Counted from the first letter of the stretch, positions 1 to 37,648 are shown. The stretch is 37,648 bases of DNA from an uncultured Bdellovibrionales bacterium (GCA_964500865.1 CAZCQJ010000004.1:21377-59024); one strand, 5' to 3'. Program-made: numbers and translations. Notes: a model not told the origin generated them from the sequence alone.

Positions 1-141
1 GGAAAAATCGCCGGCACGGTAGTGGTGTCCAGCATGAGCTGTAGCCACAGTAATTCTGTGTCCCGCTGCCGCGCAGTACACAACATCGCTTGGCCGGCGC
101 TTCTGGTACTCTGGTATGGGCATTGATTGTGGTGTTTGCAT
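1..141 (-). CDS. hypothetical protein, N-terminal part only (continues past window start); micro-ORF D of a coupled chain
   Basis: ATG at 139-141 is preceded by GGAGGAAGTG and overlaps the TGA of the upstream micro-ORF (TGATG). The frame is open to position 1 (MQTPQSMPIPEYQKRRPSDVVYCAAAGHRITVATAHAGHHYRAGDF...). It is not in the ORF track because it is truncated and short. Confidence 0.3.
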   Translation of the reverse strand, partial: MQTPQSMPIPEYQKRRPSDVVYCAAAGHRITVATAHAGHHYRAGDFS

Positions 142-305
142 CACTTCCTCCTTTTCCTACCATTGGTGGCCGAGATTTTTCCCGACCGGTGTTTCGAACG
201 AGACGGTTTGCGTTCCTTCTTTGACGAAGGGATGAATGGCAGCGATGGCGGCTGATTCCTAAATGCAGCCATCAGGATCACCATTATACCTAGTGGGTAA
301 CGCAT
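141..305 (-). CDS. 54-aa small protein with a hydrophobic N-terminus and strongly basic tail (micro-ORF C)
   Basis: GGAGGAGAGTG lies immediately upstream of the ATG at 303-305. Translation: MRYPLGIMVILMAAFRNQPPSLPFIPSSKKERKPSRSKHRSGKISATNGRKRRK. Its tail is paralogous to micro-ORF A, with mostly synonymous codon differences. Confidence 0.5.
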   Translation of the reverse strand: MRYPLGIMVILMAAFRNQPPSLPFIPSSKKERKPSRSKHRSGKISATNGRKRRK

Positions 306-329
306 CACTCTCCTCCATCTTCCAAAAAC

Positions 330-509
330 TTACGCCGTGGCACGTATTTTGGCTTTGGTCCACAGGTGGGCCTTGCCAAGCCGGTGACATAAGCGCTGCA
401 CGCCTGGCAGACCTCGTTGAGCGAGAGACTGTATTATAGCCACATGAGCCTCATGTTCATGCGCTAACTTGGCACGCTGCATGAGCTCCCTTCTAGTAAC
501 TTTGCCCAT
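330..509 (-). CDS. 59-aa hypothetical protein (micro-ORF B)
   Basis: GGAAGGAG lies 8 nt upstream of the ATG at 507-509, and that ATG overlaps the TAA of micro-ORF A (TAATG). Translation: MGKVTRRELMQRAKLAHEHEAHVAIIQSLAQRGLPGVQRLCHRLGKAHLWTKAKIRATA. Confidence 0.4.
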   Translation of the reverse strand: MGKVTRRELMQRAKLAHEHEAHVAIIQSLAQRGLPGVQRLCHRLGKAHLWTKAKIRATA

Positions 510-667
510 TATCGCGACTCCTTCCTTCGTTTACCGTGGGTATCCGAGACCTTCCCAGAACGAAACTTTGAGCGACTCTGCTGTTTGGCGTCTGACTTTT
601 TGTTGCTTCTATATCTCCTTCCGGGTGGCTGTTTCTTTCTCTGGATTCTCCTTCTCAAGAGACGCAT
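509..667 (-). CDS. 52-aa highly basic small protein (micro-ORF A)
   Basis: An internal ATG at 665-667 of track ORF 509..730 is preceded by AGGAGGG. Translation: MRLLRRRIQRKKQPPGRRYRSNKKSDAKQQSRSKFRSGKVSDTHGKRRKESR. It starts 15 nt after the yidD stop. Confidence 0.45.
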   Translation of the reverse strand: MRLLRRRIQRKKQPPGRRYRSNKKSDAKQQSRSKFRSGKVSDTHGKRRKESR

Positions 668-681
668 GCTTAAACCCTCCT

Positions 682-921
682 CTACTCTTCTGGCACAGGA
701 TCGTGCCCACCTGGGTGCCAAGGATGACAACGCAAAAAGCGTCTTACTCCCATACTGCTCCCACGCATAACGCCAAAACGCTCGATAGCGGTATACGTGT
801 AAGCACTACAACTTGGGTAAAAGCGGCACACCCGAAAACCCGTCACTTTCCCCACGAATCCGTGATCCAGCGAAAGGGTCTTTTGGTACCAGCGAATACA
901 CAAGAGAATGAGCTGCTTCAT
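682..921 (-). CDS. yidD: membrane protein insertion efficiency factor YidD
   Basis: Contains the YidD signature [19 protein letters not shown]...[14 protein letters not shown]. The family-typical start is MKQLILL (ATG 919-921); the track ORF extends to 951. Confidence 0.85.
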
Positions 922-1916: not shown

Positions 1917-3329
1917 ATGCAGCTCCACAATACGCTTGCCAAGAACAAACAAGAATTTACACCGATTCACAAGGGTAAGGTGGGGCTCTATACCTGTGGG
2001 CCAACCGTGTATGACTTCGCGCATATCGGTAACTGGCGTGCCTATATTTTTGCCGACACTCTGCGCCGTGTTTTAGAATTCAGCGGTTACGAAGTACGTC
2101 ACATAACAAACATTACCGACGTTGGCCACCTAACTGCCGATGACATTGCCCAGGGCGACAGCGGTGATGACAAAATTATCAAAAAAGCACTGGCCGAAAA
2201 AAAGACTCCGTCAGAGATCGCCGACTTTTACGAAGACTATTTTCATAGTGGCAGCGCGGCGCTTAATATTCTACCCTCGCACTACTACCCACGGGCCACA
2301 GCCCATATCCCACAGATTATTAAGATGGTCGAAGAGCTGATCGAAAATGGCCACGCCTACGTGGTAAACGGCGCCGTGTTTTACGACGTCACCAGTTTTA
2401 CTGCCTACGGAAACCTCTCAGGGAACACCCTCGAAAACCTGAAAAATGGCGCCCGCCTCGAGGAGCACCCCGACAAAAGAAACCCCTGGGATTTTGCCCT
2501 GTGGCTCCCCGCCCCCAAAGAGCACCTGATGCGCTGGCAGAGCCCTTGGAGCGAAGGCTACCCTGGCTGGCATATAGAATGTAGCGCTATGAGCCAGGAA
2601 TACCTGGGTGACATTTTTGATATCCATACCGGTGGCGAAGATCATATCTTCCCCCACCACGAAGCCGAAATCGCCCAAACGTGCGGTGTCACGCATAAGC
2701 AGATAATGGCCAACTTTTTTGTTCACCTGCGGCATAAGCTGATCGATGGACAAAAGATGAGTAAATCGAAAGGCAACTTTTACACCCTCGAAGACATTTA
2801 CGCCAAGGGTTTTGACGCCATGGATTTACGTATGGTTTTTCTGCAAGCCAACTACCGCAGCCAGATGAACTTTACCTGGGAATCGCTCGAGCAAGCCCAG
2901 AAGAATAAGCTGTCCCTTTTTGCAGTCGCTGCCCGCCTCGGTGTACTGAAAGTCACCGAACGCCTCGGTGAACGCGGAGTAACGAGTGCCCGACTCGCAC
3001 CGCTCCTCGAGGCACTCCAAGATGACCTCAATACTCCTTTGGCACTCGCGCTGGCGCTCGAACTAGCCACCGAAGACAACAAGTCCCTCGATGCCAGAGA
3101 AGCAGCTACTACCGAGCAGCGTACTCTGTGGCAGGCCATTTTCTTCCTCTTTGGGCTTCGCTACGAACCGCTCGTTATCCCAGAGGCCGTAACCGCTTTG
3201 GCTGAGGCACGCCAAGCTGCTCGGGCTGCCAAAGACTTTGCCGAAAGCGATGCTTTGCGTGACCAAATCGCTGCCGCCGGCTACTGTGTTAAATATACCG
3301 CCACTGGCTACGAAATTACCAAACTCTAG
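1917..3329 (+). CDS. cysS: cysteine--tRNA ligase
   Basis: Has the class I HIGH motif (FAHIGN) and KMSKS, and an N-terminus typical of CysRS (GLYTCGPTVYD). Length is 470 aa. Confidence 0.95.
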   Translation: MQLHNTLAKNKQEFTPIHKGKVGLYTCGPTVYDFAHIGNWRAYIFADTLRRVLEFSGYEVRHITNITDVGHLTADDIAQGDSGDDKIIKKALAEKKTPSEIADFYEDYFHSGSAALNILPSHYYPRATAHIPQIIKMVEELIENGHAYVVNGAVFYDVTSFTAYGNLSGNTLENLKNGARLEEHPDKRNPWDFALWLPAPKEHLMRWQSPWSEGYPGWHIECSAMSQEYLGDIFDIHTGGEDHIFPHHEAEIAQTCGVTHKQIMANFFVHLRHKLIDGQKMSKSKGNFYTLEDIYAKGFDAMDLRMVFLQANYRSQMNFTWESLEQAQKNKLSLFAVAARLGVLKVTERLGERGVTSARLAPLLEALQDDLNTPLALALALELATEDNKSLDAREAATTEQRTLWQAIFFLFGLRYEPLVIPEAVTALAEARQAARAAKDFAESDALRDQIAAAGYCVKYTATGYEITKL

Positions 3330-3384: not shown

Positions 3385-3963
3385 CTAGATAAAGCGACGC
3401 ACAATAAAGCGACGCTGTTTTGTGATGAATATCTCATCCCCTGGTAGACAGATCCTCAGATATCGACGCACAAGCGATACGTCGTGTTGCTCTTCAAAAA
3501 AGTAGCAACTCCCTACCAAAAGGTCCTCCTGAAAATACACAGTGACATCTTGCTGTGTCGCTTTTACGATATCCGCGGGTGTCTCAGTGGGTAACTGCCA
3601 GGGACGACATGGAGCTTCTTTTTCGATGCGCACCGTTTCTGGCTGATAGAGGCACGCTTCAAGTACAAGGAATACGTCCATGAAATAGCCAAGTTTATGG
3701 ACGGGTTGTTCTGCTCCACAGAGTTTCTCAAGGATCCGCCATTCTGGGATACTGACTAAATCGCTTTCGAAATCATAGATAGAAAAGTAATGTGGAATAT
3801 TTACGCCAGTAAACTTCTCTTCACCCAGCAACTTGTTCACAATGGAACGATCCGCACCAGGGATTAGCGTAATGTCTCGCAGCACATCTCGTGGCTTCAG
3901 CCATCTGCACTTAGGGAAAATAGTAAAATCACCCCGGTGCAGCAACTTAAATTCCTGTGACAT
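3385..3963 (-). CDS. hypothetical protein, cassette paralog 1 (no recognised domain)
   Basis: The track ORF is 3385..3975. The second ATG (3961-3963) has a GGAGAG Shine-Dalgarno 6 nt upstream and marks the exact end of the conserved flank. It is a distant paralog of 4095..4643. Confidence 0.7.
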   Translation of the reverse strand: MSQEFKLLHRGDFTIFPKCRWLKPRDVLRDITLIPGADRSIVNKLLGEEKFTGVNIPHYFSIYDFESDLVSIPEWRILEKLCGAEQPVHKLGYFMDVFLVLEACLYQPETVRIEKEAPCRPWQLPTETPADIVKATQQDVTVYFQEDLLVGSCYFFEEQHDVSLVRRYLRICLPGDEIFITKQRRFIVRRFI

Positions 3964-4030
3964 CTCACTCTCCATTGTTAAGTTTACGTTAGGCTTACTC
4001 TAGGCTTTTTTTCGTGCTCTGTCAATCGTA
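3961..4030. repeat. copy 1 of the conserved 5' cassette flank (promoter, 5'UTR, SD and ATG)
   Basis: 64 of 70 positions are identical to 4641-4710. Confidence 0.9.
3997..4025 (-). promoter_or_regulatory. sigma70-like promoter of cassette gene 1 (TTGACA-17 nt-TAGAGT)
   Basis: On the reverse complement, TTGACA is at 4020-4025 and TAGAGT at 3997-4002, with a 17-nt spacer. Confidence 0.6.
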
Positions 4031-4094: not shown

Positions 4095-4643
4095 TTAGAC
4101 TGATGCAATAAAGAGGCGCTGCTTACGTGGCATATAGTGATCATCACCAATACCACGAGTACCGATGCGATAATAAAACTCTTCCTCTCCAGGTAGAGCA
4201 TCCTCTTCTATGCAGTATTCGATATCGACTGCATATACCACCATCCCAATCTGCACATAAAACGTATTCACTGAGTCTTCTTCTTCAAGAAGAACCCCGT
4301 GCAAACCATTGCGATGTGCCCAATAAATAAGAAGTGGTTCCCAGGGTGCCATGAAGCGCCCTCTTGGAAATAGTCTCATCTTCTCCCATTCCATGGGTCC
4401 ACGAACAAGTGTCTTTTGAGCAATATCAAAAAAGTCATATTGCCTTTGGGTCCGAATAGAAAGGTACACGCGATTAAGAGTATGCATTACTCGCTCATCA
4501 AACTCATCGCTTGAATAGAGCGGGAACTTTGCCCGCTGCCAAAAAAACATACGCGGAGAAAAGAATGACGTTCTTGGGTTTTTACGAAAAAATGTAAAGG
4601 TGCCCTGATGATGAATATCTCGCAGTGTCATAGTCCGCTTCAT
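4095..4643 (-). CDS. hypothetical protein, cassette paralog 2 (no recognised domain)
   Basis: The track ORF is 4095..4655, and the same SD/second-ATG argument applies as for paralog 1. It shares only short motifs with paralog 1 (HQGTFTFFRK, YDF...MEW, LPGEEEF...KQRLFI). Confidence 0.7.
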   Translation of the reverse strand: MKRTMTLRDIHHQGTFTFFRKNPRTSFFSPRMFFWQRAKFPLYSSDEFDERVMHTLNRVYLSIRTQRQYDFFDIAQKTLVRGPMEWEKMRLFPRGRFMAPWEPLLIYWAHRNGLHGVLLEEEDSVNTFYVQIGMVVYAVDIEYCIEEDALPGEEEFYYRIGTRGIGDDHYMPRKQRLFIASV

Positions 4644-4710
4644 CTCACTCTCCATAGTTAAGTTTACGTTAGCCTTACTCTAGGCTTTTTTTCGTGTCCT
4701 GTCAATGATA
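4641..4710. repeat. copy 2 of the conserved 5' cassette flank
   Basis: See 3961-4030. Confidence 0.9.
4677..4705 (-). promoter_or_regulatory. sigma70-like promoter of cassette gene 2 (TTGACA-17 nt-TAGAGT)
   Basis: On the reverse complement, TTGACA is at 4700-4705 and TAGAGT at 4677-4682. Confidence 0.6.
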
Positions 4711-4837
4711 AAGAACTTCTATTATCTACTGTGCTGTCCACAACTTACGCACAACTGGGTCAAATGAGGCGCTTCCCCCAGTAGCCAAAGCACGCTATAC
4801 TAGAAAGACAAATTCTTACTTTTTGACCCCGCTTTCT

Positions 4838-6202
4838 ATGGCCAAGCAATCCCTCGAGCACCTCCGCGTTCCACCCCACAGCCTCGAAGCCGAAATGTCA
4901 CTTTTGGGCTCTATTATGCTCGACAAAGACGCCATTATTAAGGTGGCCGACCTCGTACGTCCGGGTGATTTCTACAAAGAGGACCACAACTTTATTTACG
5001 AAACCATCCTCGAGCTCTACGAGAAGCGCGAGCCGATCGACGTGCTTTCGCTTTCGAACCGTATCGATGAAAAAAAACGTCTTGACGACGTAGGTGGCTC
5101 GAGCTACTTGGCGAGCCTTGTTAACTCGGTCCCGAGTGCCAGTAACATCGCTCACTACGCTAAGCTCGTTCAGCGTAAGGCGCTTTTGCGCCGCCTCATT
5201 GGCGCTGCCTCGAGTATCGTTGAAATGGGCTACGACGAAAGCGAAGATGTACAAAAAGTCCTCGACGAAGCCGAACAGAAACTCTTCGCGGTGTCTCAAA
5301 AATACATTAAGCAGGACTTCATCCCCATTAAATCTGTTTTGGAAACCGCCTTCGAACGCATCGATGAGCTCCACAAGAGCGATCAAAGTTTCCGTGGTAT
5401 TCCCTCAGGCTTTCCAGACCTCGACAACATGCTGGCTGGCTTCCAAAAATCAGATCTCCTTATTCTGGCCGCTCGTCCTTCAGTGGGTAAAACAACCTTT
5501 GCTCTTGATCTCGCACGTCAAATAGGACTCCACGCCAAGGTACCCGTGGGTATCTTCTCGCTCGAAATGGGTGCCGACCAGCTGGTCGACCGTATGCTCG
5601 CTGCTCAGTCTGGTGTTGACCTGTGGCGCCTTCGTACTGGTAAGCTCTCGAGCGAGGGGCCAGGGAACGACTTCGAGCGTATCTCGGACGCGATGGGTTC
5701 TCTTTCAGAAATCCCCCTCTTTATCGATGACTCGGGGTCGCTCAACATTATGGAAATGCGTACCATGGCACGACGTCTGCAGGCCGAGCATAACCTGGGT
5801 ATGATTATCGTCGACTACCTCCAGCTGATGGAAGGCCGCTCACGCAGTGGCGATAACCGCGTACAAGAAATCTCCGAAATTTCTCGTGGACTCAAGCAGC
5901 TGGCCCGCGAACTCAACATTCCTATCATTGCCCTCTCGCAGCTGTCTCGTGCGGTAGAATCACGTCCAGACCAGGTACCGAAGCTCTCTGACCTCCGCGA
6001 ATCGGGTTCTATTGAGCAGGATGCCGACGTGGTTATGTTCCTCTACCGTGAGGACCGCGTGAAGCCAGATACGCCAAACAAAAACATTGTTGATGTGATT
6101 ATCGCCAAGCACCGTAACGGTCCAGTTGGAAAAATCTCGCTCTACTTCGAGGACAATGCCACCACCTTTAAGTCTCTTGAACGCGTACGAAGCGACGACT
6201 AG
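4838..6202 (+). CDS. dnaB: replicative DNA helicase DnaB
   Basis: Contains PPHSLEAEMSLLGSIMLD at the N-terminus, Walker A (ARPSVGKT), and RecA-like C-terminal motifs. The track ORF starts at a TTG at 4823; the first ATG is at 4838. Confidence 0.95.
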   Translation: MAKQSLEHLRVPPHSLEAEMSLLGSIMLDKDAIIKVADLVRPGDFYKEDHNFIYETILELYEKREPIDVLSLSNRIDEKKRLDDVGGSSYLASLVNSVPSASNIAHYAKLVQRKALLRRLIGAASSIVEMGYDESEDVQKVLDEAEQKLFAVSQKYIKQDFIPIKSVLETAFERIDELHKSDQSFRGIPSGFPDLDNMLAGFQKSDLLILAARPSVGKTTFALDLARQIGLHAKVPVGIFSLEMGADQLVDRMLAAQSGVDLWRLRTGKLSSEGPGNDFERISDAMGSLSEIPLFIDDSGSLNIMEMRTMARRLQAEHNLGMIIVDYLQLMEGRSRSGDNRVQEISEISRGLKQLARELNIPIIALSQLSRAVESRPDQVPKLSDLRESGSIEQDADVVMFLYREDRVKPDTPNKNIVDVIIAKHRNGPVGKISLYFEDNATTFKSLERVRSDD

Positions 6203-6205: not shown

Positions 6206-6793
6206 ATGAATTATCCGAAAGCCTTTCGTGATCTCATTGGGCACTTTAGCGCCCTCCCCTCTATCGGCCCCAAGGCAGCCGAGCGTATTGTGCTGTCGCT
6301 CTTTAAGCAGGACAACGAAAAGCTCCTTGCCTTTGCCGAGAGTCTCGAGGCCCTGCCAAAGCTCCAAACCTGCAGTCAGTGTTTTAATATTGCCGAGTCT
6401 ACACTCTGCGTTATCTGTAACGATGGCTCTCGTGATCACAGCACTATTTGCGTGGTCGAAGAGCCGCTCGACATTTTCGCCTTCGAGCGCCTCGGGAGTT
6501 ACCGCGGCGTCTACCATGTTTTGGGTGGTGTTTTAGAAGGCAACAAGGGTGACAGTTTTAAAAACCTCCGCATTCCAGAGCTTGCTTTACGCGCGAAAGA
6601 AGCCAGCGAAATTATTCTCGCCACCAATCCAACTGCCGAGGGTGACCTTACAGCTCTGACGATTACCGAAAAACTTGAGGACCTTCCGGTGACGGTTTCG
6701 CGCCTGGCCCGTGGCCTGACGAGCGGTGGTGATATTGAGTACGTCGACGAAATGACACTTCGTAGCGCTCTGAGTCATCGTGAAGTACTGTAG
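6206..6793 (+). CDS. recR: recombination protein RecR
   Basis: Has an HhH N-terminus (LPSIGPKAAERI), a C4 zinc finger (CSQC...CVIC) and a Toprim domain. Length is 195 aa. Confidence 0.95.
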   Translation: MNYPKAFRDLIGHFSALPSIGPKAAERIVLSLFKQDNEKLLAFAESLEALPKLQTCSQCFNIAESTLCVICNDGSRDHSTICVVEEPLDIFAFERLGSYRGVYHVLGGVLEGNKGDSFKNLRIPELALRAKEASEIILATNPTAEGDLTALTITEKLEDLPVTVSRLARGLTSGGDIEYVDEMTLRSALSHREVL

Positions 6794-6883: not shown

Positions 6884-7078
6884 TTATCGGCGAATCCGCT
6901 TGATCCCTTTGCGGGTGACGGCGAATCGCCCACCGTAGAAATGGTATCCTGGCTTTTGGATCTTCTTGGCGAGCTTCTTCATGCCCGGGAAACGATGTTC
7001 CTTTACCCATTTGGGCAAGGGAGCGCGCGGAGCCGACGAAGCATTAATCTTATCACAGAGATCCTTCATCTTGTTCAT
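6884..7078 (-). CDS. 64-aa basic hypothetical protein
   Basis: AAAGGAG SD lies about 10 nt upstream of the ATG. The gene has its own promoter (7177-7205) and terminator. No family recognised. Confidence 0.55.
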   Translation of the reverse strand: MNKMKDLCDKINASSAPRAPLPKWVKEHRFPGMKKLAKKIQKPGYHFYGGRFAVTRKGIKRIRR

Positions 7079-7693: not shown

Positions 7694-9589
7694 TTAGACC
7701 TCGGTATTCGGGACAAAAATACCCTTAATACGACGCACTCCTCGCGAAGAGGCCTCTTCTTTAGCGATGACAAACTTCCCAAACTCCCCTATCTCTTGGG
7801 TATTTTCCACATGGGGTCCACCACAAAGTTCTTGTGAATACACTGTCCCAGTAGTGTCAGCCACCCGGTATACCGTCACGTTTTCCGGGTATTTCTCCCA
7901 AAAGCTTCCTTCTACCCCATTAGCCTGCGCCTCATCCTTTGGCATTACTACTGTGCTTACAACGGCTCCAGCGGCGATCGCCTGGTTTACGTAGGCTTCC
8001 ACCCTATCAAGGATTTCGCGTTCTACCTTGGCACCATAGGTGAAGTCAAAACGTGTGCGTTCTTCGGTAATGTTACTTCCTGCCTGGTGAACTTCCTCGC
8101 CAAGTTCCTTACGGAGCGCAGCAAGCATTAAGTGGGTGGCGGTATGGAAGGCCGTGACTTTGGCGCTATGATCTGCCAGTCCACCTTTAAACTTACCCTC
8201 GCTCGCGGTCCGTGACAAAGCCTGATGCTGCTCGAATTCAGCATCGTATTCTTCGCGGATAAGCGTTATACCACGTTCAGCAGCGAGTTCCTCAGTCATT
8301 TCGTATGGGAATCCAAAACTCGAAAAAAGTACAAAGGCATCCCGCCCAGAGAAAGCACCGGTAGCCATTCGCTTCTCAAATTCTCGCAAACCCTTATCGA
8401 GGGTCTCACGGAACTTTGTTTCTTCTTCATTAATAGCGGCCTCGATAGCGGCCTGTTTCTGAATCAGTATTGGGTATGCATCGCCATAAGTAGTAACAAT
8501 CGATGACACTAACTTTGCAAGTGATAAGCGTGGTACACCAAGGGTATCCGCAAAACGTACTGCCCTGCGCAGTAAGCGACGGAGTACATACCCCTGATCA
8601 GTATTACTTGGTGTCACGCCGTCACTAAGTAAAAAGACACTGGCTCGCATATGATCTATAAGTACTCGGAATGCGTAAGTTTCTTTTTCGTCAGTGCCGT
8701 AGATCTTACCAGACAACGCTTCGATACTCTTGCGAATATCCGCAAAGATGTCGCCACGGAACATATCTGGTTCATTCAAAACAGCCGCCATCAAACGCTC
8801 TAGACCACCACCAAAATCAACATTCTGCTGAGTAAGTTTTTCAAAACCCCTTTCGGTACGCACGTACTCCATAAAGACATTATTTCCGATCTCCATAAAG
8901 CGACCACAGTCACAGTTCACGTGGCAGGGTTCGTCCTTCCAGGCAGATACTTCGTGCAGCCTAAGTTCTGCACCAAAATCCCAGAACATTTCTGTGTCTG
9001 GTCCACCTGGCTCGCCAACCGGCATGTTCCCTGGCACTCCCGCGCGACTCCACCAGTTCTTTTTTTCTCCGTAATAAAAAATATGTTGCCCTGGTAGAAT
9101 ACCATCTTGCTCTGGGTGCTCGCCAATCGTTACCTCCATCCCCTTCTCTGCGAAAAGCTTTTTCCAGAGTTCTGCTGATTCCGTGTCTTTTGGAATAGCA
9201 CCATCCTCACTTCCTTCAAAACAGGTAAACGAAAGTTTTGCCGGATTAAGACCGAGCTCCTCTGTTAAAAAGCACCACATAAAAGTGATCTGCTCTTGCT
9301 TAAAGTAATCACCAAAAGACCAGTTTCCGAGCATCTCAAAAAACGTCGTGTGACGGTTATCACCCACTTCTTCGATGTCTCCGGCGCGAAAGCACTTTTG
9401 AGAATCTGCAATACGCGTTCCCTCTGGATGCGACTGCCCCAAAAGATACGGCACAATAGGTTGCATGCCCGAACCCGTAAAAAGTGTTGTCGGGTCGTTC
9501 TCTGGCACAAGTGGTGCCGACGGCACAATGACATGACCTTGAGATGCGAAAAAATCAAGGTATTTCTGACGAATTTCTTGTGCAGACAT
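7694..9589 (-). CDS. alaS: alanine--tRNA ligase, short form lacking the C-terminal C-Ala domain
   Basis: N-terminus MSAQEIRQKYLDFFASQGHVIVPSAPLVP, editing-domain motifs HTATHL and CGGPHV. It ends shortly after GVRRIKG at 631 aa. Confidence 0.95.
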   Translation of the reverse strand: MSAQEIRQKYLDFFASQGHVIVPSAPLVPENDPTTLFTGSGMQPIVPYLLGQSHPEGTRIADSQKCFRAGDIEEVGDNRHTTFFEMLGNWSFGDYFKQEQITFMWCFLTEELGLNPAKLSFTCFEGSEDGAIPKDTESAELWKKLFAEKGMEVTIGEHPEQDGILPGQHIFYYGEKKNWWSRAGVPGNMPVGEPGGPDTEMFWDFGAELRLHEVSAWKDEPCHVNCDCGRFMEIGNNVFMEYVRTERGFEKLTQQNVDFGGGLERLMAAVLNEPDMFRGDIFADIRKSIEALSGKIYGTDEKETYAFRVLIDHMRASVFLLSDGVTPSNTDQGYVLRRLLRRAVRFADTLGVPRLSLAKLVSSIVTTYGDAYPILIQKQAAIEAAINEEETKFRETLDKGLREFEKRMATGAFSGRDAFVLFSSFGFPYEMTEELAAERGITLIREEYDAEFEQHQALSRTASEGKFKGGLADHSAKVTAFHTATHLMLAALRKELGEEVHQAGSNITEERTRFDFTYGAKVEREILDRVEAYVNQAIAAGAVVSTVVMPKDEAQANGVEGSFWEKYPENVTVYRVADTTGTVYSQELCGGPHVENTQEIGEFGKFVIAKEEASSRGVRRIKGIFVPNTEV

Positions 9590-15294: not shown

Positions 15295-15337
15295 AAATGT
15301 TTGGTATTTGTATTTGTGAATCATTCACTGTACCTGT

Positions 15338-16573: not shown

Positions 16574-16616
16574 AGTTTTTCTCTTTTCTGTTTTTGTCCA
16601 ACAGGATCCCTTGTAC

Positions 16617-17726: not shown

Positions 17727-17736
17727 AATAAAAATT

Positions 17737-20042: not shown

Positions 20043-20060
20043 ACTGCCAGTATACCACAA

Positions 20061-29687: not shown

Positions 29688-29695
29688 ATACAGCC

Positions 29696-29723
29696 AGTAT
29701 ACCAGCATTTTTCCTATTGACAA
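29696..29723 (-). promoter_or_regulatory. sigma70-like promoter (TTGTCA-16 nt-TATACT) for the minus-strand glycan operon; near-leaderless
   Basis: On the reverse complement, TTGTCA is at 29718-29723 and TATACT at 29696-29701. The ATG lies 8 nt downstream of the -10. Confidence 0.5.
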
Positions 29724-29745: not shown

Positions 29746-29826
29746 CGGCTGTTGAGTTGCTTTCCGCACCTTAACGGTTTTTTGGGGATATTTCCCCCTA
29801 ATCGCGCAACAACAGGAGGATTTCTC

Positions 29827-30492
29827 ATGCGCAAGATTGTTCTTTTCACGCTCGCGGCTTCGGCTACAGTAGCGCTCCCCGCTGCTGCTCAGGCTGAAGT
29901 GTCTGGTTCGACAGCTATGCACACCGGTCACTTTTTTGACGACTTGTTCGTCTCAACGACGACGCCATCAGTTACGGCCGGCGTGACCGTCACAAAAGAT
30001 AACTGCAGCGGGGCGGCTTGGGGGTTGCACGCCGCAAACCCCAACGATGACCGCGGCTGGGAGGTTGACCTCACAGCCAGCTGTGACTTTCAGTTGGCAA
30101 AAAAAACCAGCGTGACTGTTACCACCGAGCGATATCTTATCGCTGGGCCTGACATAACGGTTGCGGAAATCGGCCTGACACAAACCATCGACGAAAAAAG
30201 CAGCGTGACCCTTACGGGCACCCACTATGCTGTCGACGGACCGGCCAAAGATGCAAATCGCATCCAAGTCAGCTACGATCGCTCTCTTGCTGACAGCAAG
30301 TTCGATCTCGGCGTAGCCGCCACCTGGGAAACCGGGTTCGACTCGCCAGATATTGTAACTGCCAAGGCGAGCGTCACCTGGCATGCTACGGACCGCCTTT
30401 CTCTTGGTGTCACTGGGATTATCCCTGTGATGAAGAAGGGCTGGGATGAACGTAAAAGTCGCGTGATGGCGAGCGTCACCTGGAGCTTCTAA
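29827..30492 (+). CDS. secreted protein with outer-membrane beta-barrel-like features
   Basis: AGGAGG SD at 29815-29820, 6 nt upstream of the ATG. Signal peptide MRKIVLFTLAASATVALPAAAQA. About 10-12 strands with alternating hydrophobic residues, and a C-terminal ...ASVTWSF. The track ORF 29599.. has a spurious upstream extension. Confidence 0.7.
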   Translation: MRKIVLFTLAASATVALPAAAQAEVSGSTAMHTGHFFDDLFVSTTTPSVTAGVTVTKDNCSGAAWGLHAANPNDDRGWEVDLTASCDFQLAKKTSVTVTTERYLIAGPDITVAEIGLTQTIDEKSSVTLTGTHYAVDGPAKDANRIQVSYDRSLADSKFDLGVAATWETGFDSPDIVTAKASVTWHATDRLSLGVTGIIPVMKKGWDERKSRVMASVTWSF

Positions 30493-30505
30493 AGCTCCGA
30501 AAAGT

Positions 30506-30545
30506 GCCAGGGAACCAAACGGATCCCTGGCCTTTTTTCTTTTTC
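30506..30545 (+). terminator. rho-independent terminator after the beta-barrel-like gene
   Basis: GCCAGGGA-aaccaaacgga-TCCCTGGC followed by CTTTTTTCTTTTT. Confidence 0.8.
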
Positions 30546-30662
30546 TCCATTCTCTGCAAACCATATTGTCAACATTTCCTTCCTTGAATTATCCTCCCCT
30601 GGCTTTTTTTGTGGCTTTTTTTTATACTATAGGGGTTATACTTGATTTATTTCTCTTTATTT

Positions 30663-31952
30663 ATGGAACAAACAAAAACCGTTAGTGTTATTGGTTTAGG
30701 GTATGTTGGACTCCCCTTAGCCGTGCGTTGCCAGGAGCGCGGCTACCAAACTATTGGCCTCGATATCGACGAAGCCAAGATGGCACTTCTGCGAGACGGG
30801 AAAAATCCTTTTCAGGATGACTACATCGACGAAAATCTTTCGCGTTACCCACTCACTACCCTTACTACCAATGCCGCAGATATCGCTGCTGCTGATATTC
30901 ATATCATTGCGGTACCAACACCGGTTGATGCGCAACGCCACCCAGATCTTACCCCGGTGATTAAGGCGTCAGAAACCGTAGCGCAGTACGCAAAAAAAGG
31001 ATCCCTCGTTATTCTAGAATCGACCGTGAACCCGTACGTTTCTGAGGAAGTCGTGAAGCCTATTTTCGAACGGGCCGGTTTTACGATTGGCAAAGACCTC
31101 TATATTAGTCACTGCCCTGAGCGCATTAACCCGGGTGACCCACAGTGGAATGTGACCAATATTCCTCGTGTGGTTGGTTCATTTGATAAAACAGGGCTCA
31201 ATATGTCGCTCGAATTCTACCGCTCTATTGTTGATGCCGAGATTCGCCCGATGCGTCACATCCGCGAAGCAGAGGCTGTCAAGATTCTCGAGAATTCTTT
31301 CCGCAATATTAATATCGCCTTCGTAAACGAAATTGCGCGGTCTTTCGACAAAATGGATATTGATGTTAAAGATGTTATTGATGGAGCTGCTACCAAGCCA
31401 TTCGCTTTTATGGCTCACTACCCTTCGTGTGGTGTGGGTGGTCATTGTATTCCAGTTGACCCACACTACTTGGTAGAGCGAGCCAAAGAAAGTGGCTTTC
31501 ATCACGATTTCCTGAGTCTTGCTATCCGCACTAACGACGAAATGCCAGCCTACACCGTAGAGCGTCTTCAGGATGCCATGAACGAAATGGCACTTCCTGT
31601 GAAAGGAAAAACTGTTGGTGTTTTGGGTCTATCGTACAAGGCTAATGTTGCCGACTTACGTGAATCCCCTGCTGAAATTCTCATCGAAGAACTTAAGGCT
31701 CACCATGCAACGGTAGTAACTTTTGATCCGCTTATTCCAGAGCACTCTTCAGAAAAATCTCTGGCTGATTTCCTAGCAAAGTGTGACGCTGTTATCCTCG
31801 CTACCAATCACAAGGTCTTCATCGAAGAACTTACACCAGAGCTCATCATTGAAAATAACATCAAAGCTTTTGTCGATGGCAAGAACTGTCTCGACCGCGA
31901 CGCCTTCATGGCACACGCCGAGCACTTCATCTACCGTGGTATTGGCCGTTAA
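30663..31952 (+). CDS. nucleotide-sugar dehydrogenase (UDP-glucose/GDP-mannose dehydrogenase family)
   Basis: Has a Rossmann fold (VIGLGYVGLPLA) and the catalytic Cys region CGVGGHCIPVDP. ATG at 30663; the track ORF begins at a TTG at 30642. Confidence 0.9.
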   Translation: MEQTKTVSVIGLGYVGLPLAVRCQERGYQTIGLDIDEAKMALLRDGKNPFQDDYIDENLSRYPLTTLTTNAADIAAADIHIIAVPTPVDAQRHPDLTPVIKASETVAQYAKKGSLVILESTVNPYVSEEVVKPIFERAGFTIGKDLYISHCPERINPGDPQWNVTNIPRVVGSFDKTGLNMSLEFYRSIVDAEIRPMRHIREAEAVKILENSFRNINIAFVNEIARSFDKMDIDVKDVIDGAATKPFAFMAHYPSCGVGGHCIPVDPHYLVERAKESGFHHDFLSLAIRTNDEMPAYTVERLQDAMNEMALPVKGKTVGVLGLSYKANVADLRESPAEILIEELKAHHATVVTFDPLIPEHSSEKSLADFLAKCDAVILATNHKVFIEELTPELIIENNIKAFVDGKNCLDRDAFMAHAEHFIYRGIGR

Positions 31953-31961: not shown

Positions 31962-32204
31962 ATGTTGTTTCTCATTATTCGTCTCGCTATTTGGCTTGCT
32001 GGTTTAGTGGTCGTTCTCTATTTTGTCCTAAACTTTTTTGGGTACACCATTAACCAAGATTATTTCCTCGATAACAAAACTGCCTGCCAAGAGGCTCTTC
32101 TACAGTGTCAAAAAGACTTGGTGCGGACCGGCGTAGAAGGCGCTAAGGAAACCTGCTCACTCAATTGTCTAGACCCAAATATTCTCATTCAAAAAAAGAA
32201 CTAG
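31962..32204 (+). CDS. 80-aa small membrane protein with a four-Cys extracytoplasmic tail
   Basis: N-terminal TM helix LAIWLAGLVVVLYFVLNFF. It is tightly linked to the dehydrogenase gene and is followed by a terminator. Confidence 0.5.
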   Translation: MLFLIIRLAIWLAGLVVVLYFVLNFFGYTINQDYFLDNKTACQEALLQCQKDLVRTGVEGAKETCSLNCLDPNILIQKKN

Positions 32205-32252: not shown

Positions 32253-32326
32253 AGTGGTATACTGTAAGTACCCTTTCTTTTCTAGTGTTTTCTAGGTAAG
32301 GGCGTTATATGTTATCTCTTTATTTT

Positions 32327-33277
32327 ATGCGTCTCATCGTAAACCTGCCCGCTTTTAACGAAGCCGAAAAAATTGCCGAAACTATTCAGCGTATCCCACG
32401 TTCGTTCCCTGGTATCAGCGAAGTATTCGTGCAAGTCATTGACGATGGATCACAAGACAAAACTCTGGCCGAAGCTAAGCGTGCCCAGGCAGATTTTATT
32501 TACTCAAACGGAGTCAACCGTGGCGTCGGAAAAACCTTCCGTCACGCAGTAGAGCGCGCCCTCGAAAACGGCGCCGACATTATGGTAAACATGGATGCCG
32601 ATGGACAGTTTGAACCAAAAGATATCGAAAAGCTGATTGCGCCCATTCTGGCAAATCAGTTTGACATAGTGAGCGCCGACCGATTTGATCATCTGGCTGC
32701 AAAAAATATCCCCTTCCTTAAGGATGTCTTGAATCGTCTTGCTGCCAAGCTTATCGGGAGTTTTATGAATGAGAATATTAAAGACCTCACCTGTGGTTTC
32801 CGCGCCTATAACCGGGAAACCCTTTTGCGCTTGAACCTCCCTGGCGACTATACCTACACCCAAGAAACTATTATTGATGCTCTTGGGAAAGACCTCAAGA
32901 TTACCTGGGTCCCTGTAGAAGTTACCTATTACGCCGGCCGCAAATCACGTGTCGTAAAAACTATCTGGAGCTATGTGAACAACAGTTTCCGCATTATCAT
33001 AAGGGCCATCCGTGACGTGCGACCTATGAAATTTTTTGGTATCCCTGGCCTCCTGCTGATTGCGCTTGGTCTCTTCGGATTTACTGTCTTCTTAGTGCTG
33101 TATGCTCAGTCATTTAAAATTACGCCTTACCGTAACTACCTCTGGTTTAGTGGTGCCGCTTTCTTTGTTGGTCTTCAGTTTTTTGTCTTTGCCCTCATTG
33201 CAGACACCATTCGCTCGAGCCGCCGCCTAACAGAAGAAGTCCTCTATCAAATGAAGAAGGACCGTTACCAAAAATAG
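32327..33277 (+). CDS. GT2 polyprenyl-phosphate glycosyltransferase (GtrB/ArnC/DPM1-like) with C-terminal TM helices
   Basis: Contains LPAFNEAE, VIDDGSQDKT and DADGQF, with two C-terminal TM helices. The likely start is MRLIVNLPAFNE. Confidence 0.85.
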   Translation: MRLIVNLPAFNEAEKIAETIQRIPRSFPGISEVFVQVIDDGSQDKTLAEAKRAQADFIYSNGVNRGVGKTFRHAVERALENGADIMVNMDADGQFEPKDIEKLIAPILANQFDIVSADRFDHLAAKNIPFLKDVLNRLAAKLIGSFMNENIKDLTCGFRAYNRETLLRLNLPGDYTYTQETIIDALGKDLKITWVPVEVTYYAGRKSRVVKTIWSYVNNSFRIIIRAIRDVRPMKFFGIPGLLLIALGLFGFTVFLVLYAQSFKITPYRNYLWFSGAAFFVGLQFFVFALIADTIRSSRRLTEEVLYQMKKDRYQK

Positions 33278-33289: not shown

Positions 33290-35056
33290 ATGCCCTTCAA
33301 AGAACCCTTCCAACCAGCTACTCAGGAAAAACCTTCTCTCAAAAAAGAAACTGGGGAGCGTTTAGATTTTCCTAAAGAAATGTACGCTGTGTCTGGATTT
33401 GATGAACCAAATTTTGCACACTACGAAAGAAGTAAACGATTCGATAAAGCTATCGAGGAAGAGGTCTCTTATTTAGAAATAGCTCTATCAAGAGCAGATC
33501 AAGAATCCCTCTATGCAATTATTGCAAATAGACATGGAAGTGGCCGTATACAACTTAAAGCACTCCAAGAAGCCGCTCATTCATCTCCACCAGAAACCTT
33601 CCGTTGGTTTGCAAAACAGGCACTTCTCAAGGGAAGCGCCGAGGAGAAATCTTTTATTCTTTCCGTCATGGACAGATTCTCTCCGGAGGAACGGACAGAG
33701 ATCATGCTCTATTTTACCGAAACGCCGAATGACCCTCCTTTTGTAAAGGATGCATTCATAAATGCACGATTACTTGATGTAAAAGAGGAAGAACGTAGCG
33801 CTTTTGTTCAAACGCTCCTAAACTCACCTACTATCGCAACTCGTCTAGCTGCGATAGACTATTTACGCCTTGTTCCTAAAGACAAACAACTAAAACTTAT
33901 TTACAGCCTTTTATCTACTGAGAACGAAAAAATACGAGCTGAAGCATTTAAAAAAATAAATCTACTTCCCAAGACGAAAGAAGGCTCCCGATTACAACGT
34001 ATTTTTGCTCCTTTTTTTAAACTCATTTCTCAGTTACCCGATACAACCCGAGAGGATTTTCTCTTAAAGACATTTCGGGCATCAAACTCCGAAGAAGCTC
34101 AAAAGGCAGCTCTGCAAAATCTTCGCTACAGCGCTGGATATCTGAGCCCTAAATCAAAAGATGTCTACAAGGCCGCTTTAAAATCAAGATTTCCATTCAT
34201 TCGAAAATCAGCCATTCGGTATGCCCTACTTAACCATCCAGGTGCCTTTAACGAAGATAAGCTCCTTGCCTCCCTACAGAAGGACTCTACTATAGAAGTC
34301 AGGGCAGTAGCCGTAGATCTTACCTACATCCAGCTATGGCATAAAGGGCCTGAATACCAGGAAGAATTAGTCGCTCTTATTCGAAAAAACCTACAATCAA
34401 AAGAAATTGAACTTCAACAAGGCGCTGCCAAAAGTATATTCCGAATTAATGATCTTAAAATCCGTAAGGAGCTCCTCGCAGAAAATCCAGATATCTCCCC
34501 TTTCTTTGTTCAGTCTCCTCTTTATAACAAACACGAAACCCTCTCTTCAGAAAGATTTGAGCGCGCTGATTTTGAAAAAGACGGATCAAAAACAACTCTC
34601 CTCGGTGGAAGCCTAAAAAACCTACTTATTATTCGTCACATAAATGCAGAGAGTTTTCTTAGCTGGAAAAAAGCTTACGAAAACCATTCTGCCTGGCAAA
34701 AAGCTGGCTTCGATTATGTACCCATGGAACCAATCCAGTCATACCAGTTTGATGCATCAATTGGTCAGGTAAGAGTAGCCTCCGGAGTACTTGATATGAG
34801 TTTTGGTCAGTGGAAACGCCTTGCAATGGACACGCCCGAACATCTCCATGAGCTAGAAGAAAAGCAGGCTACAATCCTAGAGACACTCTCTTTGCTCGGA
34901 GTCATTCACGGTCATGCTCATAATGAAAACTTTGTCCTGCGGTTTTTTAGAAATCCAGATGGATCCGTTGACTTTGACCGCTGTCCACGTATTTACATTA
35001 TTGATTTTGACCAATCTAAAAGTTCTCGCGATAAAACTCCCCACTCAAATTCTTAA
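33290..35056 (+). CDS. hypothetical protein: HEAT/ARM-like repeats plus a C-terminal atypical protein-kinase-like domain
   Basis: Repeated ..IR..A...L.. helices (IRAEAFKKI, IRKSAIRYAL, VRAVAVDL). The C-terminus has GVIHGHAHNENFVL and IYIIDFDQSK, resembling the HGDxHxxN / IDFD motifs of Kdo/WaaP/RIO-like kinases. GC content is markedly lower than in neighbouring genes. Confidence 0.6.
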   Translation: MPFKEPFQPATQEKPSLKKETGERLDFPKEMYAVSGFDEPNFAHYERSKRFDKAIEEEVSYLEIALSRADQESLYAIIANRHGSGRIQLKALQEAAHSSPPETFRWFAKQALLKGSAEEKSFILSVMDRFSPEERTEIMLYFTETPNDPPFVKDAFINARLLDVKEEERSAFVQTLLNSPTIATRLAAIDYLRLVPKDKQLKLIYSLLSTENEKIRAEAFKKINLLPKTKEGSRLQRIFAPFFKLISQLPDTTREDFLLKTFRASNSEEAQKAALQNLRYSAGYLSPKSKDVYKAALKSRFPFIRKSAIRYALLNHPGAFNEDKLLASLQKDSTIEVRAVAVDLTYIQLWHKGPEYQEELVALIRKNLQSKEIELQQGAAKSIFRINDLKIRKELLAENPDISPFFVQSPLYNKHETLSSERFERADFEKDGSKTTLLGGSLKNLLIIRHINAESFLSWKKAYENHSAWQKAGFDYVPMEPIQSYQFDASIGQVRVASGVLDMSFGQWKRLAMDTPEHLHELEEKQATILETLSLLGVIHGHAHNENFVLRFFRNPDGSVDFDRCPRIYIIDFDQSKSSRDKTPHSNS

Positions 35057-35072
35057 TTGTTCAAAAAATTCC

Positions 35073-36149
35073 ATGAAACTTCTTTTTATTTCGCGGGCCT
35101 ACCCACCGGTGGTAGGTGGCATCGAGAATCATAACTACGAGCTCGCGCGGCATTTCCCTCATGTTGCCGAAACGACACTCCTCGTAAATACTCATGGGAA
35201 AAAATTCCTCCCCTTCTTTTTGCCGTATGCCCTGATAAAAACAGTGCTCACTGCAAGGCGTTACGATGCTATTTTATTTGGCGACGGTGTGCTTTCGGTA
35301 ATTGGTTTTTTCGTAAAACTCTTTTCACCCAAAGTTCGGGTTGCTTCGGTTGTCCATGGACTCGATATCACCTACGGCCAAACGCTCTTCATCTATCGTT
35401 TTTTCTGGGTGAATATTTTCCTCCCTTCGCTCGATCAGCTTCTGGCCGTAAGCCAGGAAACGAAAAATATCGCCATTCAAAATGGGCTCGACGAAAAACG
35501 GGTTACTGTTATTCCGAATGGCACCTCTGTAGAGGCTACCCCCGAACGCTACTCACGCCAGGATCTTTTAACGCTCTTAGGGCAACCCGAAAAAGAGCAG
35601 GTATTTCTACTAACCAATGGCCGCCTCGCGAAACGCAAGGGCGCAGCCTGGTTTATTCATAATGTCCTTGGTACCCTGCCGCCAAATATTCACTATATTC
35701 TCTCTGGTGCCGGCCCCGAAGAAGCCAATGTAAAAGCAGCTATTGCTGAGCATGGCCTAGCAGATCGCGTTACGCTCCTGGGGCGAACTTCGGACGAAAC
35801 AAAAAGTCTGCTACTGCATACAGCCGATATCTTTATCCAACCAAACATCGTGGTACCTGGTGACATGGAGGGCTTTGGTATTGCGGTTATCGAAGCAGCT
35901 GCCTGTGCCCGTCCCATCCTCGCAAGTAACATCGAAGGACTCAAGGATGCCCTCGCTAACAGCGCCGTTGGTATTCCGCTGCCGAGTGGCAATACTTCTG
36001 CCTGGCGCGACGCCATTCTTGATCTCGCAAGAGACAGCGAAAAACGGGCACGTCTTGGCGCAGCGGCACAAAAATATACCCGGGAACATTTTTCTTGGGA
36101 CACCATCGTAAAAACCTACGTCGAAACCCTTCAAAAACCGCTTACTTAG
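35073..36149 (+). CDS. glycosyltransferase family 4 (GT-B)
   Basis: Contains MKLLFISRAYPPVVGGIENH and EGFGIAVIEAAACARPILASN. The track ORF 34914.. has an upstream extension that overlaps the previous gene. Confidence 0.85.
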   Translation: MKLLFISRAYPPVVGGIENHNYELARHFPHVAETTLLVNTHGKKFLPFFLPYALIKTVLTARRYDAILFGDGVLSVIGFFVKLFSPKVRVASVVHGLDITYGQTLFIYRFFWVNIFLPSLDQLLAVSQETKNIAIQNGLDEKRVTVIPNGTSVEATPERYSRQDLLTLLGQPEKEQVFLLTNGRLAKRKGAAWFIHNVLGTLPPNIHYILSGAGPEEANVKAAIAEHGLADRVTLLGRTSDETKSLLLHTADIFIQPNIVVPGDMEGFGIAVIEAAACARPILASNIEGLKDALANSAVGIPLPSGNTSAWRDAILDLARDSEKRARLGAAAQKYTREHFSWDTIVKTYVETLQKPLT

Positions 36150-36210
36150 AGCTCAGCAGAAGGATCACTGCGATGCTTATAATCTGTGGTAAAATAGAGG
36201 TATTCATTTT

Positions 36211-37648
36211 ATGACTACCTCTCTTTTTTTCTCATTATTTTTCTTCTTCCTTTCGCTGGGTATTGGATTTTTCCTCCCAGGGTTTTTGGTGTTCAAGGCT
36301 CTTCAAAAAGATGCTGGGTTTCCGGCACTTGTTACTTTCCTTCTCTCCTTTGGGTTAAGTCTTTTCTTTCTCGATGCCAGCCTCCTCTTTTTGGGAAATA
36401 TCCCCGTGGCACTTACTGCCACGAACATCGCTCTTTGGTATGCAGCTCTCTTGTTGCCACTCGCTTTTTTTGTTTGGCGCAAAAACGCTTTTATAAATAC
36501 AGCCCCTTTGAAAGCGCCACGAATACTCGCCTCCAAAAAAGATCTTGCTCTTGCCGCGCTGATTCTTATAACTCTTTTCTTTGTCAAAAGTTTTTACCTG
36601 GCTGGCACCATACTGCCAACAGCTACTGACTTAGGGCATCACCTATACTGGTCACAGGCTATCAGTACTACTCATATACTACCAGAGTATGCTAAGCAGG
36701 ATATTCTGGTTTCATCAGAGAACCACTACTCCCTAGGAGATCCAGAGCCTATAGCTGATTTTATTATTGGCGAACACTTACCACTTGCCTTCCTCCAGAT
36801 ATTTATTGGATTTTCATACACCAGCGCCTTCCCGATACTCTTTCTCTTTTTACTCAACCTCTTGTCAGTACTTGCCCTGGCAGCACTAGCATACACCATA
36901 ACGACGAGTCTCTTAAAAACTTTTCCGGGCACTTCGCTCAAGCCAGGAGCGATTTTCTTGGCAGCTCTCTTTTTATTTGGTATCTTGTTTTCGCTTGCCT
37001 CACCAGAAATGAAATTCGTCAGTGGCGGAGTAATCGGAAATCTCTTTGGGAATCTTTTCATCCCACTTATTCTTCTGTGTCTTCTACGTACCCTTGTCGA
37101 AAAAAATGCATCTCTCCTTGGTATCACCTTTCTACTACTCGCAACACTAGCCTATACACATCATCTTTCGACGTTTATTCTGCTCTATATTTTCGCTGCT
37201 TTTTTTGTGGTAAGTCTTTTCTTTTTGGGTAAAAGCACCCTCGCTACTTACCAGTCCTGGCTCAAACTCCTCTTACGGCCTGCGGCCTTTCTTCCTCTGG
37301 TAGCTATTCTTTTATTCGCTGGCTTCGTAGCGCTCCCTACATACCTCGAAACCCACGCGGTAAGCACTGCTGTTGGAACCCCCACCAAAGGGACACGCAC
37401 CGGACTCACCCTGTCCGAACTCACTGCTTCAAACAGCGCTTTCAAAGTTGGCACAAGTTTCTTTGCGCTACTTTTCATCCTGGTACTTCCGCGGCTTCGT
37501 AAAACTGTTCCTGGCATACTTCTCTTCTCTTATGGTAGCGTCCTTTTGCTTATGGCACTCTTCCCGGCAGCTCTCTATGTCAATATTCCTTCGGCCCGTA
37601 TCGCAAACTACACGAGCTTTCCACTAGGACTCCTCGCACTCTTTGCAG
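36211..37648 (+). CDS. large polytopic integral membrane protein, partial (continues past window end); possibly a GT-C-like glycosyltransferase or polymerase
   Basis: I translated this by hand. The ATG at 36211 is preceded by AGAGG, and the frame is open for 479 codons to the window edge with about 12 or more hydrophobic segments (MTTSLFFSLFFFFLSLGIGFFLPGF...TDLGHHLYW...). It is absent from the track because no stop codon falls inside the window. Track ORFs 36303..36587, 36726..37127 and 37248..37517 are its antisense shadows. Confidence 0.75.
   Translation, partial: MTTSLFFSLFFFFLSLGIGFFLPGFLVFKALQKDAGFPALVTFLLSFGLSLFFLDASLLFLGNIPVALTATNIALWYAALLLPLAFFVWRKNAFINTAPLKAPRILASKKDLALAALILITLFFVKSFYLAGTILPTATDLGHHLYWSQAISTTHILPEYAKQDILVSSENHYSLGDPEPIADFIIGEHLPLAFLQIFIGFSYTSAFPILFLFLLNLLSVLALAALAYTITTSLLKTFPGTSLKPGAIFLAALFLFGILFSLASPEMKFVSGGVIGNLFGNLFIPLILLCLLRTLVEKNASLLGITFLLLATLAYTHHLSTFILLYIFAAFFVVSLFFLGKSTLATYQSWLKLLLRPAAFLPLVAILLFAGFVALPTYLETHAVSTAVGTPTKGTRTGLTLSELTASNSAFKVGTSFFALLFILVLPRLRKTVPGILLFSYGSVLLLMALFPAALYVNIPSARIANYTSFPLGLLALFA

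Follow-up and report, generated by a model that had tools for sequence, protein, structure and literature searches.

The genome assembly under study (G000) very probably uses the standard bacterial code (translation table 11), with UGA as a genuine stop codon that would be read by an intact, autoregulated release factor 2 (RF2) and that is strongly under-used, ending 5-7% of genes. This reading comes from an analysis of stop codons in a 37,648-nt stretch of DNA (the window, positions 21377-59024 of contig C4) and in the assembly around it, which spans 759,934 bp in 26 contigs at 47.6% GC, with completeness rated at 93% and contamination at 0.58%. A first-pass annotation had proposed that TGA was never used as a stop in the window and that UGA decoding by RF2 had been lost or disfavoured. 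Table 11 would be right for annotating G000, with no recoding to invoke.

The window contains 35 complete genes, found with a dicodon gene caller and Pfam, of which 21 end in TAA, 14 in TAG and none in TGA. This bears out the first-pass annotation's observation that no confident gene there ends in TGA. By itself the dicodon caller returns 34 complete genes (TAA 20, TAG 14, TGA 0), dropping an S11 peptidase gene (17737-18765, TAA stop) on account of a 70-nt overlap. The earlier counts of 21, 13 and 0 are recovered exactly when a PfkB kinase gene with an in-frame TAG is taken as a single gene. Pfam domains are complete for 27 of the 38 window open reading frames (ORFs) submitted, and no in-frame TGA was seen in the window genes. 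Of the window's ORFs, just two have a TGA stop, both on the minus strand and both with negative coding scores. The first, a 55-codon micro-ORF at 141-308 (TGA at 141-143, score -11.5), had been called ambiguous and is judged not to be a gene. The second is a spurious ORF at 29968-30564 (score -10.4, no Pfam match) antisense to the ORF at 29752-30492.

The first-pass annotation argued that such a run was improbable by chance. That holds against a generic TGA rate of 20% (P = 5e-4) and against the 23.4% pooled over other genomes of the genus (P = 1e-4), but at the genome's own rate of 4.9-6.8% the probability of no TGA among 34-35 genes is about 0.09-0.18. Since the genome's own share is 5-7%, a 35-gene run without TGA is unremarkable. 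What the window shows is typical of the genome as a whole rather than a local anomaly, and zero TGA stops in 35 genes are weak evidence on the genetic code.

Gene calls across the whole genome were made with a dicodon log-odds model trained on the 242 ORFs of G000 that are at least 350 aa long, taking the best-scoring start in each stop-delimited frame and settling overlaps greedily. The 736 resulting genes end in TAA (462), TAG (224) and TGA (50, or 6.8%); among genes of at least 300 aa the counts are 184, 82 and 15. A second, lighter caller based on codon usage, which was also used on relatives, gave 466, 224 and 46 of 736 (6.2%). A homology-checked subset of 226 genes, in which both C-termini align to a homologue in a congener, gave 160, 55 and 11 (4.9%). 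TAG stops thus outnumber TGA stops by about 4.5 to 1 (224 against 46-50). The earlier claim that TGA is disfavoured is upheld by these counts, and over the whole genome TGA stops are rare rather than absent.

The TGA-ending genes include well-supported ones. Pfam domains were found in 18 of the 20 top-scoring TGA-ending ORFs, and in those for IleRS, a class II aminoacyl-tRNA synthetase, a Mur ligase, MurG, RsmH, MnmA, an aminotransferase and others the last domain is complete 1-22 residues before the TGA. The coding score past the TGA is negative or about zero for nearly all 50 genes; the few positive values belong to same-frame neighbours or, in one case, to an ORF running off the end of its contig. 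A separate observation concerns a TGA-ending 249-aa ORF at G000:C2:61783-62535 (minus strand), which holds only the N-terminal dimerisation domain (PF02812) of a Glu/Leu/Phe/Val dehydrogenase. This gene is probably truncated or split, with the catalytic C-terminal domain missing from the ORF.

Compared with its relatives, G000 truly under-uses TGA; its share is extreme within the genus and ordinary across the phylum. With the light caller, the TGA share in 17 congeners ranges from 10.3% to 43.9% (pooled, 266 of 1139), and for 15 of them the difference from G000 reaches p < 0.05 (uncorrected Fisher tests). G000 is the lowest of the 18 sampled genus members and stands at the end of a continuum. 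Within this one genus, species of similar GC can differ as much as 9-fold in their TGA usage. For a genome of 47.6% GC, regression against GC over the genus gives an expected 22.7% TGA. Orthologues of window genes in 10 congeners end in TGA in 29 of 168 cases, including six of nine for pgk. Among the 226 matched homologues, TGA ends 11 genes in G000 and 38 in congeners; it is found only in G000 in 7 pairs and only in the congener in 34 (paired test, p = 2.5e-5). In 30 genomes sampled across the phylum (20-60 kb each), the TGA share runs from 3% to 46%, and TAG exceeds TGA in 21 of the 30; a small TGA share with more TAG than TGA is a common state there.

TGA is depleted specifically where genes terminate. 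Counted over all frames, TGA is the commonest stop trinucleotide (22,251 against 14,755 for TAG), and between genes it also exceeds TAG (3306 against 2908). The next in-frame stop downstream is TGA in 230 of 630 cases (36.5%), compared with 50 of 736 (6.8%) at the true stop (Fisher p = 1e-43). A third of the surviving TGA stops lie where a neighbouring start codon constrains them: 17 of the 50 overlap the next gene, against 43 of the 686 TAA and TAG stops, an excess of about 5-fold (p = 4e-8), and 11 of the 17 are 4-nt ATGA or GTGA overlaps. After TGA the distance to the following in-frame stop is slightly shorter than after the other stops (median 11 against 15-20 codons, p = 0.037), an effect too weak to be used as a sign of back-up stops.

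This site-specific depletion points to selection at the level of termination, or to co-adaptation with the supply of release factors. Whether termination-level selection drives the depletion is close to an even call. The alternative that survives best, though it seems rather unlikely, also keeps the standard code and an intact RF2, and has the low TGA share arise neutrally from mutation pressure and drift on a long branch. It draws on the wide and continuous variation of TGA share (10-44% in the genus, 3-46% in the phylum), on the place of G000 as a long-branch member of the genus with a distance ratio of about 1.5, on the fact that a single transition turns TGA into TAA, and on Ho and Hurst (PMC8789281), the excerpted text of which explains stop-usage trends with no appeal to release factors. 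It fits poorly with the abundance of TGA away from termination, both downstream and between genes, with the 5-fold concentration of surviving TGA stops in next-gene overlaps, and with the roughly 23% TGA that a GC of 47.6% predicts within the genus.

Several points weigh against reading G000 as a standard-code genome with TGA specially depleted at termination. According to the same excerpt of Ho and Hurst (PMC8789281), a difference between stop sites and supposedly neutral sites is by itself no proof of selection. The gene counts come from home-made callers, not from Prodigal or PGAP. The coding score per codon is 0.35 for TGA-ending calls and 0.46-0.47 for the others; some TGA-ending calls may be false or foreign, and errors in start codons could alter the overlap counts. 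The relatives were sampled at 40-100 kb for each of the 17 congeners rather than whole, and they are not independent of each other. The two lowest congeners, G263 (10.3%) and G015 (13.2%), do not differ significantly from G000, and G000 lies just 2.0 standard deviations (linear) or 2.9 (logit) below the genus prediction. Across the phylum, 7 of the 30 samples fall below 10% TGA and an eighth is at 10.2%; therefore no special lineage event is needed to explain the share in G000. Finally, neither ARAGORN nor Rfam found tRNA-Trp, tRNA-Phe or tRNA-Asn in the 93%-complete assembly, and the Trp anticodon could not be read.

If termination-level selection is at work, one mechanism can be suggested. 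UGA would be the leakiest stop codon, and the supply of RF2 may be kept low by its own frameshift feedback. The two together could have led to unconstrained TGA stops being swapped for TAA and TAG in a long-branch lineage. A bolder version, which we regard as distinctly improbable, is that the lineage is actively purging unconstrained TGA under termination selection and so lets codon capture be seen at its first step, in a mid-GC genome and within a single genus. Were this true, GC pressure would not be needed to start codon capture, and the depletion would be a first step, with UGA later reassigned in other classes of what is putatively the same phylum. The TGA stops locked in start/stop overlaps provide a natural data set for asking if stop choice follows the supply of release factors or the reverse.

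It is very improbable that the low share is an artefact of small samples or gene calling and that real TGA usage is normal. In favour of an artefact, the window offers no more than 35 genes and the gene callers were home-made. Against this, the two models and the homology-checked subset agree with each other, and the light caller that gives 10-44% on congeners gives, on three 20-kb subsamples of G000, 1-5 TGA stops per 49-66 genes, consistent with the full-genome share. TGA-ending genes are also spread over 20 of the 26 contigs.

The machinery for termination at UGA is present and appears functional. The prfB gene is on the window's own contig, 11 kb further upstream, at C4:10085-11119 (minus strand). 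The NCBIfam model TIGR00020 scores it at 454.8 bits on the genome and at 424.7 bits on the 310-aa ORF in the +1 frame, with a cut-off of 370. The conceptual RF2 protein has 360 aa; its decoding tripeptide SPF lies at residue 197 and its catalytic motif GGQ at residue 242. A leader of 19 codons in frame 0 runs from the ATG to the sequence CTT TGA C, and the body of RF2 follows in the +1 frame. This is the classical programmed frameshift, a device that lets RF2 monitor how active it is at UGA codons. The CTT TGA C site is kept in all 21 genomes compared: G000, 11 congeners and nine others of the same order. The prfA gene scores 453 bits, and next to it is the gene for PrmC, the release-factor glutamine methyltransferase (TIGR03534, 213 bits, cut-off 199).

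In wider searches, 36 of 41 close relatives have a prfB that scores above the cut-off, as do 188 of 201 genomes taken from across the phylum; this second tally includes the unpublished genome G189, which is below the cut-off and supports no other result here. The 13 misses include three short RF2s, one RF2 split across contig ends, and one genome whose congener has a full prfB. A scan of genome contigs with RF2 gave mainly matches in distant phyla, the best being a "Candidatus Moraniibacteriota" metagenome-assembled genome at 62% identity, and a protein-atlas search with DnaB yielded no informative taxa. RF2 of G000 is 53-59% identical to those of congeners, which are 58-80% identical among themselves. 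Expressed as a ratio of G000-congener to congener-congener distance this is 1.41, compared with a median of 1.47 (range 0.97-1.92) for 18 window proteins. Decay of RF2 was rejected on this basis: the control proteins are equally or more distant, and G000 is simply a long branch.

These results make it extremely improbable that RF2 decoding of UGA is lost or nearly so, leaving TGA unassigned and all termination to RF1. Such a loss would suit the window without a TGA-ending gene, the 4.5 to 1 excess of TAG over TGA, and the lack of any detected tRNA with anticodon UCA, which fits an unassigned codon rather than a reassigned one. Set against it are a prfB above the cut-off with SPF and GGQ kept, a UGA-dependent frameshift site shared with 20 of 20 relatives, an RF2 that diverges no faster than its neighbours, and the 46-50 genes that end in TGA, essential full-length ones among them. 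The marks of codon capture are absent in that TGA is not near extinction genome-wide and no decoding factor is lost or decaying. The first-pass annotation's proposals that RF2 was lost, that UGA had reached an unassigned or codon-capture stage, and that RF1 was doing the work are each contradicted by this evidence. It had also named a normal TGA share together with an intact prfB as the finding that would make the window a sampling fluke; prfB is indeed intact, but the TGA share is not in the normal range.

Conserved genes were screened for in-frame TGA by tblastn with 1009 called genes from 17 congeners as queries. Only called genes were used; a query set of all congener ORFs of at least 120 aa was swamped by antisense ORFs. 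Matches were obtained for 667 queries, giving 808 high-scoring segment pairs and 270,453 aligned residues, and no credible in-frame TGA in a conserved gene was found among them. Each apparent in-frame TGA came from a single mis-called antisense query rich in all three stops, and the sole in-frame stop backed by more than one query was a TAG in the PfkB gene (11 queries). No internal stops were found in rpoB or rpoC. The earlier statement that conserved window proteins lack in-frame TGA agrees with this wider screen. Of 91 pairs of same-frame neighbouring genes parted by a single stop, two are parted by TGA.

ARAGORN and the Rfam model RF00005 both found 36 tRNAs in G000. None of these has the anticodon UCA, in an assembly that is 93% complete and in which tRNA-Trp is also missing. 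In the excerpted text of Shulgina and Eddy (PMC8629427), the presence of TIGR00020 RF2 and the absence of tRNA-UCA mark UGA as a stop in doubtful genomes. Under relaxed settings, ARAGORN also proposed a candidate tRNA-Phe(GAA) at C3:37230-37543, which would contain a 241-nt intron and lies within a genuine cluster of tRNAs. For tRNA-Arg, the anticodons GCG and UCG are present and ACG is not found, a set that matches the pattern of the candidate phyla radiation as given in the excerpted PMC8629427; this and the small genome speak for a putative place of G000 in that radiation (Patescibacteria). On contig C11, a Met-Met-Ile set of tRNAs is found in two inverted copies.

The chance that TGA now encodes an amino acid, Trp as in code 4 or Gly as in code 25, is vanishingly small: in its favour are that UGA is read as Gly in other classes of what is putatively the same phylum (PMC8629427, in excerpt) and that tRNA-Trp, and with it the Trp anticodon, is missing from the assembly, while against it RF2 is present, 270,453 aligned residues and rpoB/rpoC show no in-frame TGA, conserved proteins end exactly at TGA, and TGA parts so few same-frame neighbours. 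The first-pass annotation had likewise set the pattern apart from code 4 and code 25 genomes.

Known systems provide useful comparisons. Excerpted text of PMC8629427 describes Gracilibacteria and Absconditabacteria (code 25) and Mycoplasmatales (code 4) as having lost prfB, carrying a tRNA-UCA and using TGA inside conserved genes. G000 is unlike these lineages in having prfB, no tRNA-UCA among its 36 tRNAs and no credible in-frame TGA. The first two groups are like G000 in belonging to what is putatively the same small-genome radiation. A further likeness is that codon capture, as a model, posits an earlier stage of rare TGA. Acholeplasmataceae and phytoplasmas, as excerpted from a 2025 mBio survey of prfB (PMC12421855), resemble G000 in a reduced genome, the standard code, a retained prfB and rare TGA; they differ in that low GC favours TAA and prfB lacks the frameshift motif, whereas G000 has 47.6% GC and keeps the motif.

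The closest parallel in the excerpted survey (PMC12421855) is Flavobacterium johnsoniae, in which about 7% of stops are RF2-specific and prfB is retained with its programmed +1 frameshift; the survey also links retention of the frameshift motif to low TGA usage. G000 is alike in its 6-7% TGA and its kept frameshift site. Flavobacterium johnsoniae comes from a different phylum, and its genome is larger. G000 is further set apart by the Shine-Dalgarno-like element upstream of the slippery site, CAGGAA or CAGGAC in a conserved hairpin, unlike the consensus AGGGGG, and by a low TGA share that stands out in its genus. Keyword searches of the literature on Patescibacteria turned up no paper on their stop-codon shares, and the excerpt of PMC10746230, from a search on Saccharibacteria, gives none.

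The CTT TGA slippery site of prfB is preceded, at a distance of 4 nt, by a 6-bp hairpin (L001:2498-2545, minus strand, on contig C4 of G000). The hairpin is conserved in all 21 genomes compared from the genus and order; in alignment A1, all 120 cells are paired. Compensatory double changes occur in four of the six pairs, a number reached in 0 of 500 shuffles, and slid controls pair at 24-55%. The peptide encoded there varies between genomes. The 3' arm of the hairpin holds the Shine-Dalgarno-like element, here CAGGAC or CGGGAC. In the excerpted text of the mBio survey (PMC12421855), the terms "hairpin" and "secondary structure" do not occur, and the sole "stem-loop" is in the title of a dnaX reference.

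Short release factors of 252-257 residues were seen in three genomes of the same class as G000 but of other orders: G159:C2:79167-79901, G267:C4:15869-16576, G196:C19:7775-8527 and G196:C2:30245-31006. They match the RF1/RF2 models from about position 100-110 onwards, that is, without the N-terminal domain. G159 is rated 100% complete, and no prfB was found in it, yet 50 of its 280 called genes end in TGA. It was set aside as an example of a relative without RF2 because its congener G267 has a full prfB (405.6 bits). The gap in G159 is most likely an assembly gap.

Two conserved genes of G000 contain an in-frame TAG. In the window, a gene for a PfkB-family sugar kinase (12988-14022, minus strand) is broken by one TAG at 13213-13215. 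Its N-terminal piece (13213-14022) ends at this TAG and covers profile positions 24-240 of 302 of PF00294; its C-terminal piece (12988-13206, TAA stop) covers positions 247-299. The two share a frame and lie 6 nt apart, and 11 congener genes align over the TAG as one ORF. The TAG may reflect a nonsense mutation or a pseudogene, a variant within the population that entered the assembly, or read-through. Outside the window, a gene for a Wzy-like membrane protein at G000:C3:46080-47771 (plus strand) has a TAG at 46887-46889. It carries repeated "VPRGTF / CSTWN" segments, and one congener gene aligns over the TAG at 26.6% identity across 414 aa. A possible TAG suppressor, "tRNA-Pyl(cta)" at 30452-30543, was one of 196 mostly absurd calls by relaxed ARAGORN and was rejected; Rfam returned no tRNA at these positions, either at the gathering score or at E-values up to 10.

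The rest of the window is described here from its left end. About 750 bp without a credible gene, including window positions 1-681, separate an hrcA-like gene (C4:20536-21309, minus strand) from yidD. On the minus strand of 1-681 every ORF of at least 15 codons has a low or negative score, and Rfam gave no match at the gathering score. The yidD gene (682-921, minus, TAG; PF01809, E 9.7e-26) is overlapped by a plus-strand ORF at 469-984 with no Pfam match and a coding score of -61.5. It is followed on the plus strand by a corA-like gene (1008-1913, TAA; PF01544, profile 2-291 of 292) and cysS (1917-3329, TAG; PF01406 and CysS_C). Two minus-strand ORFs come next, one of 196 aa without a family (3385-3975, TAG; score 41.5, no Pfam match) and one of 186 aa, also without a family (4095-4655, TAA; score 49.0). 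On the plus strand are dnaB (4823-6202, TAG; PF03796 and PF00772), which is 80-85% identical to most of 49 congeners, and recR (6206-6793, TAG; Toprim_4 and RecR domains).

A run of minus-strand genes begins with a weak call of 64 aa (6884-7078, TAA; score 12.1, no Pfam match). It continues with rplU for L21 (7270-7572, TAA; PF00829, profile 1-99 of 99), alaS (7694-9589, TAA; PF01411 and PF07973), a 674-aa protein of unknown family (9665-11689, TAA; score 320) and an ftsA-like gene (11694-12947, TAA; PF14450). Beyond the PfkB gene lie eno (14026-15324, TAA; Enolase_N and Enolase_C), pgk (15521-16642, TAA; PF00162) and a Glycos_transf_4 gene of MraY/WecA-like type (16617-17807, TAA; PF00953). 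The S11 gene dropped by the caller encodes a D-Ala-D-Ala carboxypeptidase (minus strand; PF00768, E 1.7e-57, score 112). It is followed by scpB (18713-19333, TAG; PF04079), scpA (19338-20060, TAA; PF02616), an MFS transporter gene (20061-21227, TAG; PF07690) and a 152-aa ORF conserved in congeners (21257-21715, TAA; score 52.5). The rpmA gene for L27 (21811-22092, TAA; PF01016) is on the plus strand.

In the right-hand part of the window, on the minus strand, are genes for an S41 protease (22375-23691, TAG; PF03572 and PDZ), a GT2 glycosyltransferase (23695-24540, TAA; PF00535), an LCP (LytR_cpsA_psr) protein (24549-25757, TAG; PF03816), a GT4 glycosyltransferase (25776-26930, TAA; PF00534 and PF13439), a Wzy_C O-antigen-ligase-like protein (26918-28528, TAG; PF04932) and a second GT4 glycosyltransferase (28533-29723, TAA; PF00534). 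The remaining genes are on the plus strand. They begin with a 246-aa ORF with a signal-peptide-like start (29752-30492, TAA; score 70.7), a UDP-glucose/GDP-mannose dehydrogenase gene (30642-31952, TAA; PF03721, PF00984 and PF03720) and an 80-aa ORF (31962-32204, TAG; score 31.5). The last three encode a GT2 glycosyltransferase (32309-33277, TAG; PF00535), a 588-aa HEAT-repeat protein (33290-35056, TAA; PF13646) and a GT4 glycosyltransferase (35073-36149, TAG; PF00534).

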